This document shows positions 710 through 23,554 of a DNA stretch of 28,407 bases, piece after piece. Source of the DNA: a virus; the IMG/VR virus record IMGVR_UViG_2554235475_000003, positions 1-28,407 of that record; one strand, written 5' to 3'. The notes under the pieces were generated by a model. That model had not been told where the DNA came from. It searched no databases and saw only the letters and a list, made by a program, of their open reading frames with translations. The stretch's first letter is position 1. Each line of letters begins with the position of its first letter. The translations under genes were made by a program, and so were the position numbers.

Positions 710-1134
710 GCATCTTCGAAGACCTCTACGAGGTCTACTATCAGGCGGGAACTCACCGCGACCACGTCACTGGCTCGTGCGAGGCCGACACGCTCCTGGA
801 GGCGCTTCGCGCCGTCGACGCAACGACCGGCGCCGACGTGGACATCACCCGGGGCGACGTCGTCGTCATCCTCGACCGGCAGTCAGCCGAGACGATCTCT
901 GAGCGGCTCGGAGACGACGTCCACGTCGCATTCGAGGATCCACTTGTCCCTCGCGAGCACCTGTATCTCGCCCCGAGTCGGATCGAGCAAGTGCTCCCCG
1001 GGAAGACGCAGGTCCACACCGTCGGGAATCCGTCACGCTGGGGGCTCGTGATGGATCCGAACTGCGTCAGCTACGACAACGAGGTCATCGACCCTGCAGG
1101 CGTCGTCGGGATCTCGTGGGTGATCGAGTCGTGA
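706..1134 (+). CDS. Hypothetical protein (142 aa)
   Basis: ATGA/GTGA coupling and haloarchaeal codon usage. GGAGG at 694-698 upstream. Confidence 0.75.
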   Translation: MSIFEDLYEVYYQAGTHRDHVTGSCEADTLLEALRAVDATTGADVDITRGDVVVILDRQSAETISERLGDDVHVAFEDPLVPREHLYLAPSRIEQVLPGKTQVHTVGNPSRWGLVMDPNCVSYDNEVIDPAGVVGISWVIES

Positions 1135-1391
1135 CCCAGACCGTCGACGTCGCCGACCTGCCGCGCTCGACGAGAGAACACCTCGCCGAGCTCCCACCGA
1201 CGGCCACAGTCGTGTACCTCCACCTCCGCAACGAGGGGAACCCCAGGACGCTGCGACAGATCGCCTACGAGACGGTCCGTCCACAGCGGTCGATACGCCG
1301 CGCACTCCGCCAGCTGCACGAGGAGGGAATGGTCTCGTGCTCGCCGCGGCACACGGATCCGCCACAGTCGGAATGGCAGGTCAACGAGTGA
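1131..1391 (+). CDS. Winged helix-turn-helix DNA-binding protein (MarR/TrmB-like), 86 aa
   Basis: GTG start overlaps the upstream stop. Pattern PPTATVVYLHL...TLRQIAYET...RSIRRALRQLHEEGMV is a typical wHTH. Confidence 0.75.
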   Translation: MTQTVDVADLPRSTREHLAELPPTATVVYLHLRNEGNPRTLRQIAYETVRPQRSIRRALRQLHEEGMVSCSPRHTDPPQSEWQVNE

Positions 1392-1532
1392 GCGACAAAA
1401 TGGCGCTCGGGGGTCGACTTAAGCCTACGGCCAAGCAACAGATGGTCGACGACGGCACCGCCACATGGTCCCGAGCCTGAGAAGGTGATGACAGGGTCAG
1501 TCCGACAGCACCGCGCTTCTCCTCTTGCCCGC

Positions 1533-2015
1533 ATGTCTACTACGCAACAGTCACTCGATGAGTTCACGACTCGTCGCGATGTCGTGCCCGCCCGCGTGTT
1601 CGAGCGCTACCTCTGGACGAATCCCGAGGTGTGCAGCGAGTGTTTCGCCCGGATACGCACCGAACACACGATGACACGCGACCAGTGGGGAAACACCGTC
1701 ACCGAGCTCGACCGAGCAGACGCAGGCATCCAGGGGTACGACAACGTCAACGGCGGCGGCGTGTACCTCCCGCGAACGTTTTGCGAAGACTGCGGGGGGC
1801 GCGGTCACGCCGACCCCGAGACGGACTCGAAGATTCAAGCGACGCGCCGTGCCACACAGATCGTCGCCCGCCTCGACGAGCGCAACATCCCGGTCGATGC
1901 CCGAGCGCTCCGCCGAGCCACCCGCGTGCTCAAGTCGAAGCCCGAACTGGAGGCGCTGGACCGCGAGATCTACGAGCGCGCCACGAAGATCGCCGTCCGG
2001 AGGGCGCAGTCGTGA
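1533..2015 (+). CDS. Zinc-binding hypothetical protein (160 aa; CSEC...CEDCG)
   Basis: Two CxxC pairs. The ATG at 1533 (MSTTQQSLDEF) is preferred over 1485 because the N-terminus is typically haloarchaeal. Confidence 0.72.
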   Translation: MSTTQQSLDEFTTRRDVVPARVFERYLWTNPEVCSECFARIRTEHTMTRDQWGNTVTELDRADAGIQGYDNVNGGGVYLPRTFCEDCGGRGHADPETDSKIQATRRATQIVARLDERNIPVDARALRRATRVLKSKPELEALDREIYERATKIAVRRAQS

Positions 2016-2191
2016 GCCTCTCACAGTACGACCGGGTCGCGTTCGACTTCGCCGGTCGCGAGCTCGTCGGCGACGCTGTGAACTACCACCCTGCCGCCGA
2101 CGTCAACGGCCCGGACGGGCTCCTGGTCGTCGACGTCGACGGCGAGCGCTACCGGGTTGCAGAGTCGCAAGCCGAGCAGTTGGATCGATAG
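2012..2191 (+). CDS. Small beta-rich hypothetical protein (59 aa); 3' end overlaps the tRNA
   Basis: GTGA coupling at 2012-2015. Acidic sequence SLSQYDRVAFDF...VAESQAEQLDR ending TAG 2189-2191. Confidence 0.6.
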   Translation: MSLSQYDRVAFDFAGRELVGDAVNYHPAADVNGPDGLLVVDVDGERYRVAESQAEQLDR

Positions 2192-2255
2192 CGCAGTCTG
2201 GGAGCGCACGGCACTGAAGACGCCGCCTGCCCCGGTTCGAATCCGGGTCGATCCG
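2182..2255 (+). tRNA. trnF: tRNA-Phe (anticodon GAA), virus-encoded, no CCA encoded
   Basis: Full cloverleaf: acceptor GGATCGA/TCGATCC, D-arm GCGC-AGTCTGGGA-GCGC, anticodon arm CGGCA-CTGAAGA-CGCCG, variable loop CCTGC, T-arm CCCGG-TTCGAAT-CCGGG, discriminator G. Confidence 0.92.
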
Positions 2256-2414
2256 TGTCCCGTGGGGCGCGCCTTCTGATGAAGGCCAGGTCAACCCCAC
2301 GGGGATGTTGAAACTCATGAGCGACCGGCAGCCGGGAGATAGTGACTCTCTGTGTACCTTCTCGACGACGACATCGTCGCGTGAGTGGTTGCAAACCCTC
2401 AAGTCCGGTCGCCT
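2256..2414 (+). ncRNA. Candidate structured ncRNA of unknown family, between tRNA-Phe and a tRNA-like element
   Basis: Helices CCCGTGGGG(2259-2267)/CCCCACGGG(2295-2303) enclosing GCCTTC-TGAT-GAAGGC. GCGACCGG(2321-2328)/CCGGTCGC(2405-2412) closes a multibranch with three hairpins. No credible ORF. Confidence 0.5.
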
Positions 2415-2515
2415 TGCTGCGCCTGTGGACAGGTGACGGAGGCCGCTATGGGGCGGGCGAAACCAAAGCCCGTCACGCGGCTCCCCCGTCCCGGGTTCGA
2501 TCCCCGGCGTAGCGT
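2415..2515 (+). ncRNA. tRNA-like element (canonical T-arm and acceptor stem, no canonical anticodon arm)
   Basis: T-arm CCGGG-TTCGATC-CCCGG (2491-2507). 3' acceptor strand CGTAGCG (2508-2514) can pair with TGCTGCG (2415-2421) or CGCTATG (2444-2450). Followed by TTTT (2515-2518). Confidence 0.55.
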
Positions 2516-2558
2516 TTTCGAGTCGTATCGCACGCTAACCCCACCGTTTCCACTCCAA

Positions 2559-2666
2559 ATGCCCATCCCGTCTTATCGTTCGACGACCGACCAGTGCCCG
2601 GAGTGTGGCGCCAGCTACACCTCGGCGAGACCCTGCGACTGCCAGCCCCTCGCTGATGTCTCATGA
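2559..2666 (+). CDS. CPxCG-type zinc-finger microprotein (35 aa; CPECG...CDC)
   Basis: ATG at 2559. CPECG motif. Stop overlaps the next ATG (ATGA 2663-2666). Confidence 0.55.
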   Translation: MPIPSYRSTTDQCPECGASYTSARPCDCQPLADVS

Positions 2667-2977
2667 GCGCTGTGCAACCCGCTCGGGCATGGTACTGCCG
2701 GGACGACGTCGTCGACGAGTACAAGAGCACCCTCAAAGAGGACGATGAGAAGCTACCGATGCTGAAGACGCTGAAGATCATCCGGGCGATCGTCGTCAAC
2801 GTCGGGCTGTTCGCCGGGTGGATCTACGCGCTCTACCTCGGCGGTGACCCGACGATCATCACGGTCTTCGCGCTCGGTGTGGTCGGCGCGTACAACGGCC
2901 TCGAACTCGGTGACTACCTCGCACTCGTTCAGGCGTACTCCGAGATCCAAGCCGAGGCCAACGACGGCGACGACTGA
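2663..2977 (+). CDS. Small membrane protein with two predicted TM helices (possibly holin-like)
   Basis: Hydrophobic stretches IIRAIVVNVGLFAGWIYALYLGG and IITVFALGVVGAYNGL, with an acidic tail. Last gene before the packaging operon. Holin role is inference only. Confidence 0.7.
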   Translation: MSAVQPARAWYCRDDVVDEYKSTLKEDDEKLPMLKTLKIIRAIVVNVGLFAGWIYALYLGGDPTIITVFALGVVGAYNGLELGDYLALVQAYSEIQAEANDGDD

Positions 2978-3050
2978 CTGCGACCTGTTCGACACCGTGA
3001 CACTCGATCGACGCCGCTCTCGCCGTCGACGTCGTCTCCGCCCGTCCCTA

Positions 3051-3063
3051 CTTAAAATATAAG
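3051..3063 (+). promoter_or_regulatory. Archaeal TATA box region (CTTAAAATATAAG) for the packaging/morphogenesis operon
   Basis: The only AT-rich island in GC-rich intergenic DNA, 35-45 nt upstream of the terS ATG. Quasi-palindromic (CTTA...TAAG). Confidence 0.65.
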
Positions 3064-3097
3064 ACCGCCCCGAACGCTGCAGAACGCTTCCTCACTC

Positions 3098-3811
3098 ATG
3101 TCCACTCGCGACCGACGTGTCACACTCGCCCTGAAGTGGCACTATCTCGACAACCTCGACGTCGACCAGATACGGGACCGCTTCGAGGAAGAAGGGATCG
3201 GGTCGTACGCACGGTCGACGATCCGGGGCTACCTCAACGAGGAGCCGAAGGACGCGGTCATCGAGCAGATCGAGGCGGAACACGCCGACGTCCGCCTGCA
3301 GATCGCCGAGCGAGAAGAGCGGATGTACCGCCGAGCTCGCAGCGCCGAGAACGCAGCGACCGAAGACGAGCCCATCCGGCGTACCGTGCCGAAAACAGAC
3401 ACCGTCCCCGCGGATCGGGAGAGCCCGATGTCGTGGCCGGCGTGGGAGATCGTCGAGCCCGGCGATCCCGACCGTCCCGAGTGGGCCGAGGAGCGCGACA
3501 TCGTGATTCGGTTCGACGACAACCAGCAGACACAGCTACGCCCCGGAGAGCGCTACCCGGTCCGGTCGATCGACGGCTCACCGACGTACACGACCGAGAT
3601 GGTCGGCCTCGATCGCGACGTCGACGACCTACCGGGACAGGCGAGAGCCCGCCAGGAACAGTCCCAACACCTCCAGGCGAAAGGCGACGCCCTGGGCGTG
3701 TTCTCCGAGAAAATCGAACTAGAGGGCGACCTCGAACACAGCGGTGGGTTCGACGTCTCGATCACTCACCACCGCGTCACTGAGGAGGACACCGATGTCG
3801 ATAACGACTGA
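3098..3811 (+). CDS. terS: Terminase small subunit (putative)
   Basis: Directly upstream of and overlapping terL. N-terminal HTH (DVDQIRDRF...YARSTIRGYL), coiled segment, and C-terminal LGVFSEKIELEGDLEH tail typical of TerS. Confidence 0.7.
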   Translation: MSTRDRRVTLALKWHYLDNLDVDQIRDRFEEEGIGSYARSTIRGYLNEEPKDAVIEQIEAEHADVRLQIAEREERMYRRARSAENAATEDEPIRRTVPKTDTVPADRESPMSWPAWEIVEPGDPDRPEWAEERDIVIRFDDNQQTQLRPGERYPVRSIDGSPTYTTEMVGLDRDVDDLPGQARARQEQSQHLQAKGDALGVFSEKIELEGDLEHSGGFDVSITHHRVTEEDTDVDND

Positions 3812-5132
3812 GGGCGTCGCGGTCGACACCACGGGCGGCACTCTCGATCTCGACTGGGGGTTCTGGGACGCCCAACTCGACGCGATCACGGCGCTGGAGT
3901 CGGGTGCGTACGACGTCGTCAACTTCCGGGGTGGCTACGGCTCGGGAAAGACGATCCTCGGCTCGCGGTGGATCATGGAGAAGGCGACGGAGGTCGCCGG
4001 CTCAGACAACCTGATCATCGCACCCGACTCCAAGAAGGGCGGCCCGACGACGTACAAGGTCTTCTTCGAAGAGCTTCCGGGCGAGGACACCGTCCCCGAC
4101 GAGGGTGGCGATCCCGAGAACTCGCCGTTCGTCGACGAGTACAATCGGAACGAGCGCCGAATCACATGGTTCAACGGCTCCGTGGTCCGCCTCGGGAGCG
4201 CCGACGTCTGGAACCGGTACGCCGGCGGGGAGTTCAACGCCATCTGGTGCGACGAGGTCGCTCACTACGAGCACACCGACATCTTCGACCTCAACCGGAT
4301 GCTGCTCTCCCGGCAGCGCACCCGTGACGGACCGAACGTCACGCTCTGGACGTCGACGGGGAACGGGTACAACCAGTACTACGACTTCGTCGAGCGCCAG
4401 GTGACGCCAGACGATGACGACCTCCCGACGCGCCTCATAAACGTCGTCGCCGACTCGCGGAACAACCCGTTCCTCCCCGAGAAAGAGAAGCTGGTCCGGC
4501 AGTTCGAGGGAACGGAGAAGGAGGATCAGGGCCTCGCCGGCGGCTTCGCGGCCGCCGAGGGGCTCGTCTACTCGGCGTTCTCTCGGCCGACGCACGTCCG
4601 AAAGCGCGACGATGTCGAGATCCGGAGCAACTGGCGACTCTACGGGTACGACTACGGGTTCAAAGACCCGCGCGTCCTCCTCGAGATCGGCAAGACGCCG
4701 GCGGACCAGTACGTCGTTCTCGATCTGTACTACGAGAGCCAGCAGCCCGTCGAACACCTTATCGATCCGAGTGACGGCTCGGGCTGGATGCTCCGCGAGG
4801 AGAAGCCCGCGGGTGAACTCTACTCCGACCACGAGCCCGAGCACATCCAGAAGTTCCGGAACGCCGGGTACGAGGCCTACGCCGCGACGAAGGACCTCGA
4901 CGAGGGCATCGACGAGATGCGGAGCGTCCTCGACACCGACGTCGACGGTCGCCCCGGGCTCATCGTCCTCGAGGACTGCACGGAACTGATCAAGGAGTTC
5001 CAGAGCTACAAGGAGGACGATGTCGGGACGAGCCGGGCGACAGACCACGCCCTCGACGCACTCCGGTACGCCATCATGGGCGATCGGTACGTCGAGGAGG
5101 ATGACGGCGCCGGCGGTTCGGGGACCTGGTGA
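3795..5132 (+). CDS. terL: Terminase large subunit (445 aa)
   Basis: Walker A GGYGSGKT, Walker B AIWCDE, coupling motif TST, nuclease motifs YGYDYG and DHALDALRY. SD GGAGG at 3783-3787 supports the ATG at 3795. Confidence 0.95.
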   Translation: MSITTEGVAVDTTGGTLDLDWGFWDAQLDAITALESGAYDVVNFRGGYGSGKTILGSRWIMEKATEVAGSDNLIIAPDSKKGGPTTYKVFFEELPGEDTVPDEGGDPENSPFVDEYNRNERRITWFNGSVVRLGSADVWNRYAGGEFNAIWCDEVAHYEHTDIFDLNRMLLSRQRTRDGPNVTLWTSTGNGYNQYYDFVERQVTPDDDDLPTRLINVVADSRNNPFLPEKEKLVRQFEGTEKEDQGLAGGFAAAEGLVYSAFSRPTHVRKRDDVEIRSNWRLYGYDYGFKDPRVLLEIGKTPADQYVVLDLYYESQQPVEHLIDPSDGSGWMLREEKPAGELYSDHEPEHIQKFRNAGYEAYAATKDLDEGIDEMRSVLDTDVDGRPGLIVLEDCTELIKEFQSYKEDDVGTSRATDHALDALRYAIMGDRYVEEDDGAGGSGTW

Positions 5133-6721: not shown

Positions 6722-7577
6722 CACCCACGCCCACAACCACACCCACCAGCTGACGGCCGCGGAGTACGCCCTCGACGAGCCGGGCCGTGTCGACCCGACG
6801 TCGACGACGTCGATCCAGCGCTCGCTCGCCCGGTTCCTCCGCGGTCGGATCGGGCACCTCAACGCGGACGTCCGCCAGCTGCTCGTCGAGGAGGATGCGC
6901 TCGGGCTCGGCGACGGCGTCGGCGGGCGATGGGCCGACCTCTCCGCGGCGGAGACGGCACGGCGCTTCGACGACTGGATCCAGCAGGCGATCCGGGTGGA
7001 GGTCCTCGACCCGATCGAGGTGCGGCAGGTCCGCGATTGGTTCGAGCGAGCGAGCCGACAGGCGCTCCGCACGGCCAACGGCGAGCTTCGGTCGTTCGAC
7101 GTCGACCCGGATCCCGTCGACGACGTCATCCAGCAGGACGCCGTCCAGGAACAGATTGACCTGCAGCAGGAAGACACCCGACAGCGCGTCGAGTCGTGGA
7201 TGGACGACTACGCGACCGACACGCGCTCGCTCGTGACCGCCGGCGTCGGCGGCGAGATCTCGAGGTCGCAACTGATGCGCGACATCTCCGAGCGGGCGCA
7301 GGTGTACAAGTCGCACGTGACGTCGACGGCGAGCGGCCGTGTCGTCAACCAGTACAACACGACGAAGCTCACCGCATACGACCGAGTCGACACCGAGATC
7401 GAACTTGACGTCGAAGCCGAGTTCGAAACGGCCGGCGACGACAGAGTGTGTGAACTCTGCCGGAGTCTCGCAGGCACCTACTCCTTAGAGGAGGCCCAGA
7501 ACCTCACCATCCCCGATGACACTCACAACCTGTGTCGGTGTCAGTGGGTGGTGACCGACGTCCGGCAGATGTTCTAG
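6714..7577 (+). CDS. SPP1 gp7 / Mu gpF-like minor head protein
   Basis: C-terminal TAGDDRVCELC...HNLCRC signature. Position after portal. SD GAGGTG upstream of the ATG at 6714. Confidence 0.85.
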   Translation: MSSTHAHNHTHQLTAAEYALDEPGRVDPTSTTSIQRSLARFLRGRIGHLNADVRQLLVEEDALGLGDGVGGRWADLSAAETARRFDDWIQQAIRVEVLDPIEVRQVRDWFERASRQALRTANGELRSFDVDPDPVDDVIQQDAVQEQIDLQQEDTRQRVESWMDDYATDTRSLVTAGVGGEISRSQLMRDISERAQVYKSHVTSTASGRVVNQYNTTKLTAYDRVDTEIELDVEAEFETAGDDRVCELCRSLAGTYSLEEAQNLTIPDDTHNLCRCQWVVTDVRQMF

Positions 7578-9179: not shown

Positions 9180-9665
9180 ATGATCGCAGCACACCAAAGC
9201 ATTCTCGCACAGGTGCACAACGAGAACAGCTACCTCGAGGGCGAGGCCGACTCGGCGCTCGACCCCGGCACGGGCGCGGTCGCCTACAAGGACGCCGACG
9301 GCAACTGGCACATCCGACAGGCCACCGCCGATGAGGACACCAAGCGGATCGTCCGTGAGCAGCGGAACCCGCCCCGCGGCGGGATGACCGTCACGGACAC
9401 CGGCGACAGCCCGATCGATGACGGCTACAACGCCGGTGACAACGTCGAGACGGTCGGCTTCCACCGCTACGACCGGGCGCGGCTCCGCGTGTCGCCGAAC
9501 GCGACCGCAGACCCGACCGACACGCCGGTCGGCTTCGACGCAGATGGACTGATCACTGACGACATCGACGGCGCCGGGGCCACCCCGGCCGCGCCGGTCG
9601 GGCGTGGCATCGAGCTGATCGAGCGGGCGACTGAGGACGACCTTCTGGTCGTGGAGTTCTACTGA
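9180..9665 (+). CDS. Capsid cement/decoration protein (putative, 161 aa)
   Basis: Small beta-rich protein between scaffold and MCP. SD GGAGG at 9167-9171. Confidence 0.6.
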   Translation: MIAAHQSILAQVHNENSYLEGEADSALDPGTGAVAYKDADGNWHIRQATADEDTKRIVREQRNPPRGGMTVTDTGDSPIDDGYNAGDNVETVGFHRYDRARLRVSPNATADPTDTPVGFDADGLITDDIDGAGATPAAPVGRGIELIERATEDDLLVVEFY

Positions 9666-23228: not shown

Positions 23229-23554
23229 AGACTACACTGATGATCGTCCGGCGGGCGCGACGGGCGTGAGGCACCACACGCGCTCACCCATTCCCAACGC
23301 TACGACTCACCAGTAGCTACGTTCGTTGAGAACGCGACGCCGGGGATGGCGGCCCGGGTCGCGTGAATCTGCCCCCGTCTGACAAAGGGCAGGCACGGTC
23401 GACGTCGACAGAGGGCAGATCGAAGGGAGAGAAACGGGCCCGGTAGTGGGGGGAGAGAGCCCGTTTCCAGCAGGAACCAACAGTCCCTGTTGACTAATCA
23501 CGAGTCAATCAGTGAATAGGTTTTGGTTCTGTCCCAGTTCGTCAATTACTACCA

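Follow-up and report, generated by a model that had tools for sequence, protein, structure and literature searches.

The stretch of DNA analysed here (28,407 nucleotides of the IMG/VR virus record IMGVR_UViG_2554235475_000003, equal to G000:C15:11005-39411 and hereafter the window) belongs to a provirus that is kin to the Halorubrum viruses BJ1 and Humcor1 (Graaviviridae), and it contains a non-coding stretch (2192-2558) between two small genes. The provirus probably corresponds to the one on contig_15 of Halorubrum aidingense that appears in the legend to Figure 7 of PMC7911831. The stop codon of the upstream 59-aa gene overlaps the 5' end of a tRNA-Phe, and the next start codon, at 2559, opens a 35-aa gene. 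In between lies a cassette that comprises, in this order, the tRNA-Phe, a folded RNA of ~160 nt with two domains named P1 and P2, and a 98-nt tRNA-like structure, TLS (Table 1). The locus had been singled out from its sequence by a model (the original prediction) as a non-coding RNA (ncRNA) which host enzymes would excise from between two tRNA folds. The comparative analysis reported here indicates that the cassette is a new, undescribed RNA family.

Table 1. Positions in the window of the cassette, its parts and its neighbours.
Feature	Position	Strand	Evidence or remark
Winged-helix regulator gene	1116-1391		among small early genes upstream of the cassette
tRNA-Phe(GAA), 5' bracket	2182-2255	+	Rfam RF00005, 53.8 bits; also called by Aragorn
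Stop codon of 59-aa gene	2189-2191		overlaps 5' end of tRNA-Phe
P1, long irregular hairpin	2258-2304	+	basal helix 2258-2267/2295-2304; upper hairpin 2271-2286
P1 helix CCCGUGGGG/CCCCACGGG	2259-2267/2295-2303	+	minimum-energy fold
P1 hairpin GCCUUC-UGAU-GAAGGC	2271-2286	+	minimum-energy fold
UGAAGGCCAGGUCAAC (AGGUCA bulge and adjoining strand)	2280-2295	+	16 contiguous pairs with early leader
P1 3' bulge AGGUCA	2288-2293	+	invariant in family
Single-stranded linker, conserved (..UGUUGARAC..AYGAG)	2305-2320	+	alignments A3, A6
P2 5' strand GCGACCGGC	2321-2329	+	RNAalifold columns 108-116 with 248-257
P2 helix GCGACCGG/CCGGUCGC	2321-2328/2405-2412	+	minimum-energy fold, with inner hairpins
P2 variable interior	2330-2402	+	three hairpins in window; gap-rich alignment, lengths differ among relatives
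P2 3' strand, G-U(bulge)-CCGGUCGC	2403-2412	+	inside near-invariant CAAGUCCGGNCGCCUUGC
TLS, four-way junction	2416-2513	+	covariation; R1 matches 116-145 bits
TLS acceptor stem	2416-2421/2508-2513	+	6 bp
TLS GG hairpin	2422-2433	+	4 bp; loop UGGA in window (UGGN in family)
TLS long-arm helix S1	2435-2439/2486-2490	+	
TLS long-arm helix S2	2442-2446/2477-2481	+	
TLS long-arm helix S3	2452-2458/2468-2474	+	
TLS long-arm loop GAAACCAAA	2459-2467	+	family cap GARACCMAA
TLS T-arm	2491-2495/2503-2507	+	T-loop UUCGAUC
TTTT tract	2515-2518	+	present; window-specific
Conserved trailer (..CCCCNCCGTTTCCACTCCARATG)	2519-2561	+	reaches start codon of following gene
35-aa CxxC..CxC gene	2559-2666		
TATA-like AAATATAA	3056-3062		
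Large terminase subunit gene	3744-5132		within packaging genes

A scan of the whole window against Rfam 15 returned no family beyond tRNA-Phe at the gathering thresholds, and the papers on BJ1 and Humcor1 annotate the tRNA alone at the cassette. In both viruses, unannotated DNA that is ~69% identical lies directly 3' of the tRNA-Phe. When 257 genomes of the family were searched at the DNA level, 10 of the 74 from the window's genus showed strong matches, and no other genus showed any. A covariance model built from the TLS (R1) was then used to search contigs, and it matched 23 copies on IMG/VR viral contigs and ~20 on hypersaline metagenome contigs (116-145 bits), while among 151 genomes sampled from the class its matches were confined to the window's genus. 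Deduplication left 45 distinct copies, 37 of them less than 96% identical to one another, from BJ1, Humcor1, Halorubrum proviruses, IMG/VR contigs and hypersaline metagenomes, and the named hosts or sources are all Halorubrum. These homologs, together with the covariation seen in P1, P2 and the TLS, bear out the claim that the cassette stands beyond chance. Three pattern matches (L225, L227, L251) fit neither R1 nor R2, the model of P1, and were rejected as copies; a genome-wide scan with a loose loop pattern gave mostly chance matches in bacteria. Apart from one weak signal described below, an Rfam search of 551 nt at E <= 10 found chance-level matches only.

No part of the cassette is better conserved than the TLS (77-81% identity vs ~69% overall), and the helices of its long arm are separated by conserved internal loops (CUAUNGG opposite AC). 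Across 11 sequences, 96.3% of the cells were paired, compared with ~42% when the 3' partner was slid, and 15 of the 32 pairs were altered on both sides. RNAalifold, given 35 full-length sequences and no prior structure, recovered the TLS helices as well as P2. The acceptor stem (6 bp) and T-arm (5 bp) were 100% paired with compensatory changes, and the T-loops among the copies read UUCGAUC, UUCGAAA or UUCAAUC, in agreement with the tRNA pattern of an acceptor stacked on a 5-bp T-stem with a UUCRANY T-loop. A second acceptor-like stem had been predicted to begin at 2415; it is present but starts at 2416, as the pair 2415-2514 is U-G in the window only and U/C in most relatives. An inner alternative acceptor (2444-2450 with 2508-2514) was rejected, being window-specific and not complementary in relatives. 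The T-loop, GG hairpin and acceptor have been kept, which supports the proposed role of the TLS in tRNA-fold punctuation, but the strongest conservation and the elaborate invariant long arm suggest a function beyond punctuation.

A decoding tRNA can be ruled out for the TLS. That it might be a real tRNA gene, intron-containing or decaying, with the 160 nt as an inter-tRNA spacer of a viral tRNA array, is a very improbable explanation, even though its T-arm and acceptor stem are tRNA-like and Aragorn, when allowed introns and a lowered threshold, reports a tRNA-His(AUG) with a 25-nt intron here and a tRNA-Leu in one relative. Default Aragorn calls the tRNA-Phe alone at the locus, and the tRNA model (RF00005, at least 29 bits) did not match 2416-2513 even at E <= 10 in the 551-nt search. 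The D-like hairpin has 4 bp and a 4-nt loop, the terminal loop of the long arm has 9 nt, and the junctions measure 0, 1, 0 and 0 nt; neither a D-arm nor the 8/9 linker of a tRNA is present. The would-be anticodon varies among close relatives (AUG, AUU, AUC) and needs A34. An intron was rejected because the bulge-helix-bulge motif of exon-intron borders (two 3-nt bulges around a 4-bp helix) is absent: the internal loop between S2 and S3 has 5-6 nt on its 5' side but 2 nt on its 3' side, with no second opposite bulge. Moreover, the arms are under purifying selection with covariation, which does not fit decay, and the supposed spacer itself covaries. The TLS was also rejected as an attachment site, as nothing within 2182-2518 recurs elsewhere in the window's own genome and the TLS is internal to the virus in BJ1 and Humcor1 also. 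The weak signal mentioned above came from the mascRNA-menRNA model (RF01684) on 2444-2514, with 22.1 bits (E = 0.05) vs a gathering score of 42.5, and it skipped the middle of the model.

The RNA between the two tRNA folds is itself structured. The minimum-energy fold of 2256-2414 (-66.1 kcal/mol, z = -2.79 vs shuffles) contains every helix named by the original prediction, all of which are also found in the sequence. The RNA was placed on the + strand because G-U pairs are frequent, which would be A-C mismatches on the other strand. For P1, 41 loci were matched by model R2, with 25.4 bits for the window, and 35 of 35 sequences folded singly give a like structure, which is built, from the base, of a basal helix, a tandem G-A/A-G internal loop, a second helix, the 3' bulge, an upper helix and a mostly U-rich terminal loop; in the window's subclass, Watson-Crick pairs replace the tandem G-A/A-G loop. 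P1 pairing reached 92.3% in a MAFFT alignment and 90.8% in a model-fitted alignment of 41 copies, which leans towards structure and in which 9 of the 16 pairs changed on both sides. The P2 consensus is GCGRCCGGC with G-U(bulge)-CCGGYCGC, and three of its nine pairs are compensatory in the RNAalifold consensus, each in 8-10 of the 35 sequences. The interior of P2 varies in sequence and length, with a conserved AAAC motif near its 3' end only, so the three inner hairpins that had been described from the window are not features of the family.

Several resemblances of this RNA were examined and set aside. Similarity to RNase P RNA (CAAG-U-CCGG, which recalls its helix P4 of the CR-I and CR-V strands; GCCAGGU.A.CGCC) was rejected, as there was no RNase P match at E <= 10; P4 of the host RNase P RNA is AAAGUCCCCC/GGGGGCUU, and the 8-9-mer it shares with the cassette is expected by chance. 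A hammerhead or C/D-box reading of CUGAUGA (2276-2282) was rejected as well, since the motif is window-specific and has no Rfam support. For the AGGUCA bulge and the loops of the TLS and of P1 (U-rich), inspection by eye of alignment A3 found no loop-loop or pseudoknot partner with consistent covariation.

The element that precedes this RNA differs among the copies, being a tRNA-Phe in 28, a tRNA-Asn in three, a tRNA-Trp in one and a non-decoding mini element in ~11. The mini element (~58 nt) has a 6-bp acceptor (covarying U-G, U-A, C-G), one hairpin and a T-arm. In loci L078, L067, L036, L047, L237, L235, L009, L006, L069 and L263, the upstream stop codon UAG falls within the hairpin loop (UAGG) of this element. 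P1 starts directly 3' of the bracket in 43 of the 45 copies, which are all those not truncated by a contig end, and the TLS starts 3 nt (CUU) after P2. Exchange of the tRNA-Phe for Asn, Trp or a mini element argues that the bracket acts as a processing signal, and thus that its role here would be recognition by tRNA-processing enzymes. In Haloferax volcanii, RNase P and tRNase Z excise a CRISPR RNA (crRNA) in vivo, and with precise ends, from between two tRNA-like elements, or t-elements (PMC4326828, PMC4946936), and this precedent makes the proposed excision mechanism feasible in this clade. The idea of two tRNA folds as punctuation around an excised RNA is well supported by comparative anatomy and by this precedent, while the cleavage itself is something we infer. 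The host of the window's provirus also has a t-element before its 5S rRNA (L347:1620-1760, minus strand; contig C19), with an acceptor CCGAC/GUCGG, an 11-bp hairpin and a T-arm with the loop UUCGAGU, which is the same three-arm build as in the viral mini element and agrees with the published description from Haloferax.

The part of P1 that includes the AGGUCA bulge is complementary to G000:C16:7332-7347, with 15 Watson-Crick pairs and one G-U pair, and this site is the predicted 5' end of an early rightward transcript; the original prediction was silent on this complementarity. Contig C16 (20 kb) carries early genes and is collinear with part of Humcor1, and it is probably one provirus with C15, the contig of the window, as the genome has one leader and one cassette. 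The region of C16 at ~6860-7430 (L324, L306) holds a leftward winged-helix repressor gene, a TATA-like box and a rightward structured leader of ~95 nt. In BJ1, the stretch GAGGCCAGGUC of P1 is the perfect complement of 9562-9572, a site ~22 nt past a TATA-like box where ORF20 (winged-helix repressor) and ORF21 diverge from a shared intergenic region. The leader core TTGACCTGGCC is invariant in 11 virus/provirus pairs and lies ~22 nt after the TATA-like TTATTTGTA with the same spacing, and the early transcript is predicted to start at or beside GUUGACCUGG.

The predicted RNA-leader duplexes of these 11 pairs span 14-22 bp. In a scan of the BJ1 genome, no non-self site paired better with the 3' half of P1 than the leader (-38.8 kcal/mol; mean -17.4, sd 4.1; z about -5.3). 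Variants at the RNA site are mostly C-to-U changes, which preserve pairing to the leader as G-U and have compensating changes within P1, and cognate pairs bind slightly better than non-cognate ones (permutation p = 0.04). Both RNA and leader are carried by 12 of ~14 informative genomes, the exceptions being G344 and G170 (see below). In addition, the 5' end of the leader is predicted to pair with an internal GGCYGGGUC, closing a three-way junction, and this internal strand is a near copy of GGCCAGGUC in the RNA, which suggests a mechanism of competition.

On this basis, the cassette may, tentatively, be read as a processed two-domain ncRNA plus TLS, in which the P1-P2 RNA is an antisense riboregulator of the early leader. 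In such a scheme, 2182-2513 would be transcribed as one cassette of tRNA, P1-P2 ncRNA and four-armed TLS, presumably within a long rightward early/middle transcript, because the upstream stop codon overlaps the tRNA and no AT-rich TATA-like box was seen at 1395-3049. Host tRNase Z would cut after the tRNA (or mini element) and host RNase P before the TLS, releasing a discrete P1-P2 RNA of roughly 2256-2415, while a tRNase Z cut after the TLS would yield a TLS RNA of ~100 nt and the 5' end of the downstream message; these processing steps are suggested by the anatomy and the Haloferax t-elements. Pairing would then start at the AGGUCA bulge and involve the initial ~16-20 nt of the early rightward transcript, and the P1-P2 RNA might compete with the leader's internal GGCYGGGUC, remodel the leader and feed back on the early genes, as the complementarity and its conservation suggest. 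A riboregulator which is cut from the early transcript and pairs with new early transcripts could act as a self-timing feedback switch from early to later development, with the TLS as a second product with a function of its own; this fuller picture is more doubtful than the antisense role.

Several observations weigh against the antisense riboregulator. The leader is on a contig other than the window's, and their membership in one provirus is deduced, as is the start of the early transcript. Two relatives, G344 (viral contig, 95% complete) and G170 (near-complete genome), keep AGGUCA, and a homologous leader was not found in them. When the window's own provirus is scanned, the energy of the leader (-40.7) does not stand out from that of the second-best site (-40.3). 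Because the leader hardly varies, covariation between the two RNAs is weak, and the cognate advantage is small. The TLS acceptor has six secure pairs rather than seven, and its junctions are without the linker nucleotides that tRNAs normally have; RNase P or tRNase Z may therefore fail to cut, and processing of the cassette by host enzymes is itself a prediction. Moreover, the antisense role does not explain the long arm of the TLS, which shows the strongest conservation.

The same long arm is central to a different explanation, namely that the TLS RNA, alone or with P1-P2, is a tRNA mimic which binds or decoys a tRNA-binding factor, such as a CCA-adding enzyme, a synthetase, a modification enzyme or a tRNA-targeting defence nuclease of host or virus, and that the leader match is incidental. 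The TLS keeps tRNA elbow elements and is the most conserved part of the cassette; the unpaired motifs of its long arm (CUAUNGG, ACG, GARACCMAA) are invariant beyond the needs of punctuation, and the two relatives with the cassette in which no leader was found would be accommodated. However, no partner protein emerged, the neighbouring genes belong to no known RNA-binding families, and the invariant P1 bulge and the 16-nt leader match would be left unexplained. We regard a mimic as rather unlikely, though as the likeliest of the alternatives.

The complementarity could also reflect a shared 11-16-bp motif that acts as DNA, either as an operator of a viral repressor or as a recombination site, with no RNA pairing involved. 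There are only two copies of the motif per virus, in inverted orientation and with a core that is invariant at both sites, and one of them sits at the predicted +1 of the early promoter, beside the winged-helix repressor gene. The copy in the RNA gene, however, falls exactly in the bulge and helix strand of a covarying hairpin, its C-to-U variants are compensated inside P1 and tolerated as G-U pairs with the leader, and complementarity continues past the core via G-U pairs; P2 and the TLS would also be left unexplained. A DNA motif is therefore improbable.

Short BLAST searches of the window and BJ1 for other antisense targets gave chance-level matches only, the leader excepted, and a 17-nt match at 23331-23347, considered as a tRNA fragment, proved to be a chance match. 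In BJ1 (L303), further copies of the 9-mer GACCTGGCC or its complement occur at 4657 and 35182, for four copies in total vs 0.45 expected; these two are inside genes and their flanks are not shared. A variant of the cassette (L081/L043, viral record G347) keeps the tRNA-Phe, P2 and the TLS, and its P1 is short, unrelated and without AGGUCA; the record, which is rated 96% complete, also lacks the conserved early leader. A search for a divergent target of the P1 of L043/L081, and of L045, found nothing convincing.

Downstream of the TLS, the T-tract noted by the original prediction does exist, but it is not a family feature, as most relatives read GCC-CTTCGAG there. The trailer that follows is conserved in ~10 of 12 relatives, before different genes. 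Because the TTTT is confined to the window and conservation runs on through the trailer, read-through is likelier than termination. The trailer measures ~40 nt (..ACCCCNCCGTTTCCACTCCARATG) and is followed by the 35-aa zinc-ribbon gene in the window, a 492-aa exonuclease gene in BJ1 and no ATG in Humcor1; it contains no Shine-Dalgarno motif, and its CACUCC could pair with GGAGUG on the 3' side of P1.

This conservation up to the next start codon, before different genes, would fit a simpler role in which the cassette is transcript punctuation alone, where cuts at the tRNA and TLS split the early from the downstream messages and set the 5' end of the next mRNA, and P1 and P2 are a stable spacer or exonuclease block with no function in trans. 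The cassette also occupies the only sizeable gap of a long co-directional gene array (in BJ1, no other large gap separates the MCM helicase block from the terminase genes), and the Haloferax precedent applies equally. A passive spacer, however, would not be expected to keep the AGGUCA bulge and the linker invariant alongside compensatory changes in ~45 copies, and punctuation alone is accordingly judged unlikely, more so than a tRNA mimic.

The original prediction had placed the cassette just before the late operon, and this did not hold, as two small genes and a separate TATA-like box intervene before the packaging genes. The only strongly AT-rich stretch near the cassette is 3049-3098, where TACTTAAAATATAAG lies ~35 nt upstream of the ATG at 3098 of a 237-aa gene (phrog_23205) directly before the large terminase subunit gene. 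It looks like the TATA box of a leaderless packaging operon, and the late genes thus probably have their own promoter, apart from the cassette. A scan for bacterial-type promoters and terminators is uninformative for archaea.

Releasing an ncRNA by tRNA-like processing signals is a known principle; what is new here is the architecture, the viral and archaeal setting and the predicted early-leader target. The closest comparison is with the t-elements, namely the tRNA-like structure upstream of the Haloferax volcanii 5S rRNA and the engineered flanked crRNAs (PMC4326828, PMC4946936, citing Holzle 2008, 2012). In both systems, folds with an acceptor and a T-arm directly adjoin a second RNA, whose ends would be set by tRNase Z and RNase P; the two-bracket arrangement of the cassette equals the engineered crRNA construct, and the host 5S element (acceptor, long hairpin, T-arm) and the viral mini element share the three-arm build. 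In contrast, the cassette is natural and viral, brackets a conserved structured RNA and is processed by prediction; its 3' bracket is four-armed with a conserved long arm of 55 nt, and it has no sequence similarity to the host element, as R1 matches the provirus alone in the host genome.

In MALAT1, an RNase P cut makes the 3' end of the upstream RNA, and RNase Z frees a small tRNA-like RNA, mascRNA. Like MALAT1/mascRNA and MEN-beta (RF01684), the cassette has a reduced cloverleaf at the 3' end of an ncRNA, and RF01684 is the only Rfam model with a signal on the TLS; the score falls too far below the gathering score for the TLS to be a member, however, and the mascRNA family is vertebrate and nuclear and has no upstream tRNA bracket. 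The C4 antisense RNA of phages P1 and P7 is reportedly cut from the transcript of its own target, with one end made by RNase P, and is said to control early or immunity functions (Citron and Schuster 1990; Hartmann et al. 1995). The cassette would resemble it as a phage antisense RNA excised from a target-bearing transcript with RNase P at one end, but C4 is bacterial, resembles the cassette in neither sequence nor fold and is not flanked by tRNA genes, and regulation is a prediction here. GOLLD and ROOL are likewise structured ncRNAs beside tRNAs in (pro)phage genomes and their function is not known, whereas the cassette has no Rfam match, is far shorter (~260 nt including the TLS), is archaeal and has another architecture. 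Mitochondrial tRNA punctuation, the 3' tRNA-like structures of plant viruses and the tRNA-like domain of tmRNA also use tRNA folds as processing signals or mimics, but in other hosts and none with the P1-P2-TLS architecture.

To our knowledge, hardly any regulatory RNAs have been described from archaeal viruses, and it is not understood how haloarchaeal tailed viruses control the early-to-late transition. The family, which has ~45 members that clearly covary, is absent from Rfam and comes with a specific predicted target and route of processing, is well defined and testable. Material for such work exists, as BJ1 has been isolated and Humcor1, which turned up induced in a virus stock, is a provirus of Halorubrum coriense Ch2, a strain in culture. 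For annotators, the stretch should be neither left blank nor called a second tRNA, and its parts may be of practical use as natural parts for RNA expression in haloarchaea. If the proposed function is true, the cassette would be one of the earliest families of structured regulatory RNAs acting in trans to be described for an archaeal tailed virus, and nature's equivalent of the engineered t-element expression system, and it would mean that viruses, too, use tRNA-like punctuation, as in haloarchaeal 5S rRNA, mitochondria and MALAT1, to make a discrete ncRNA.

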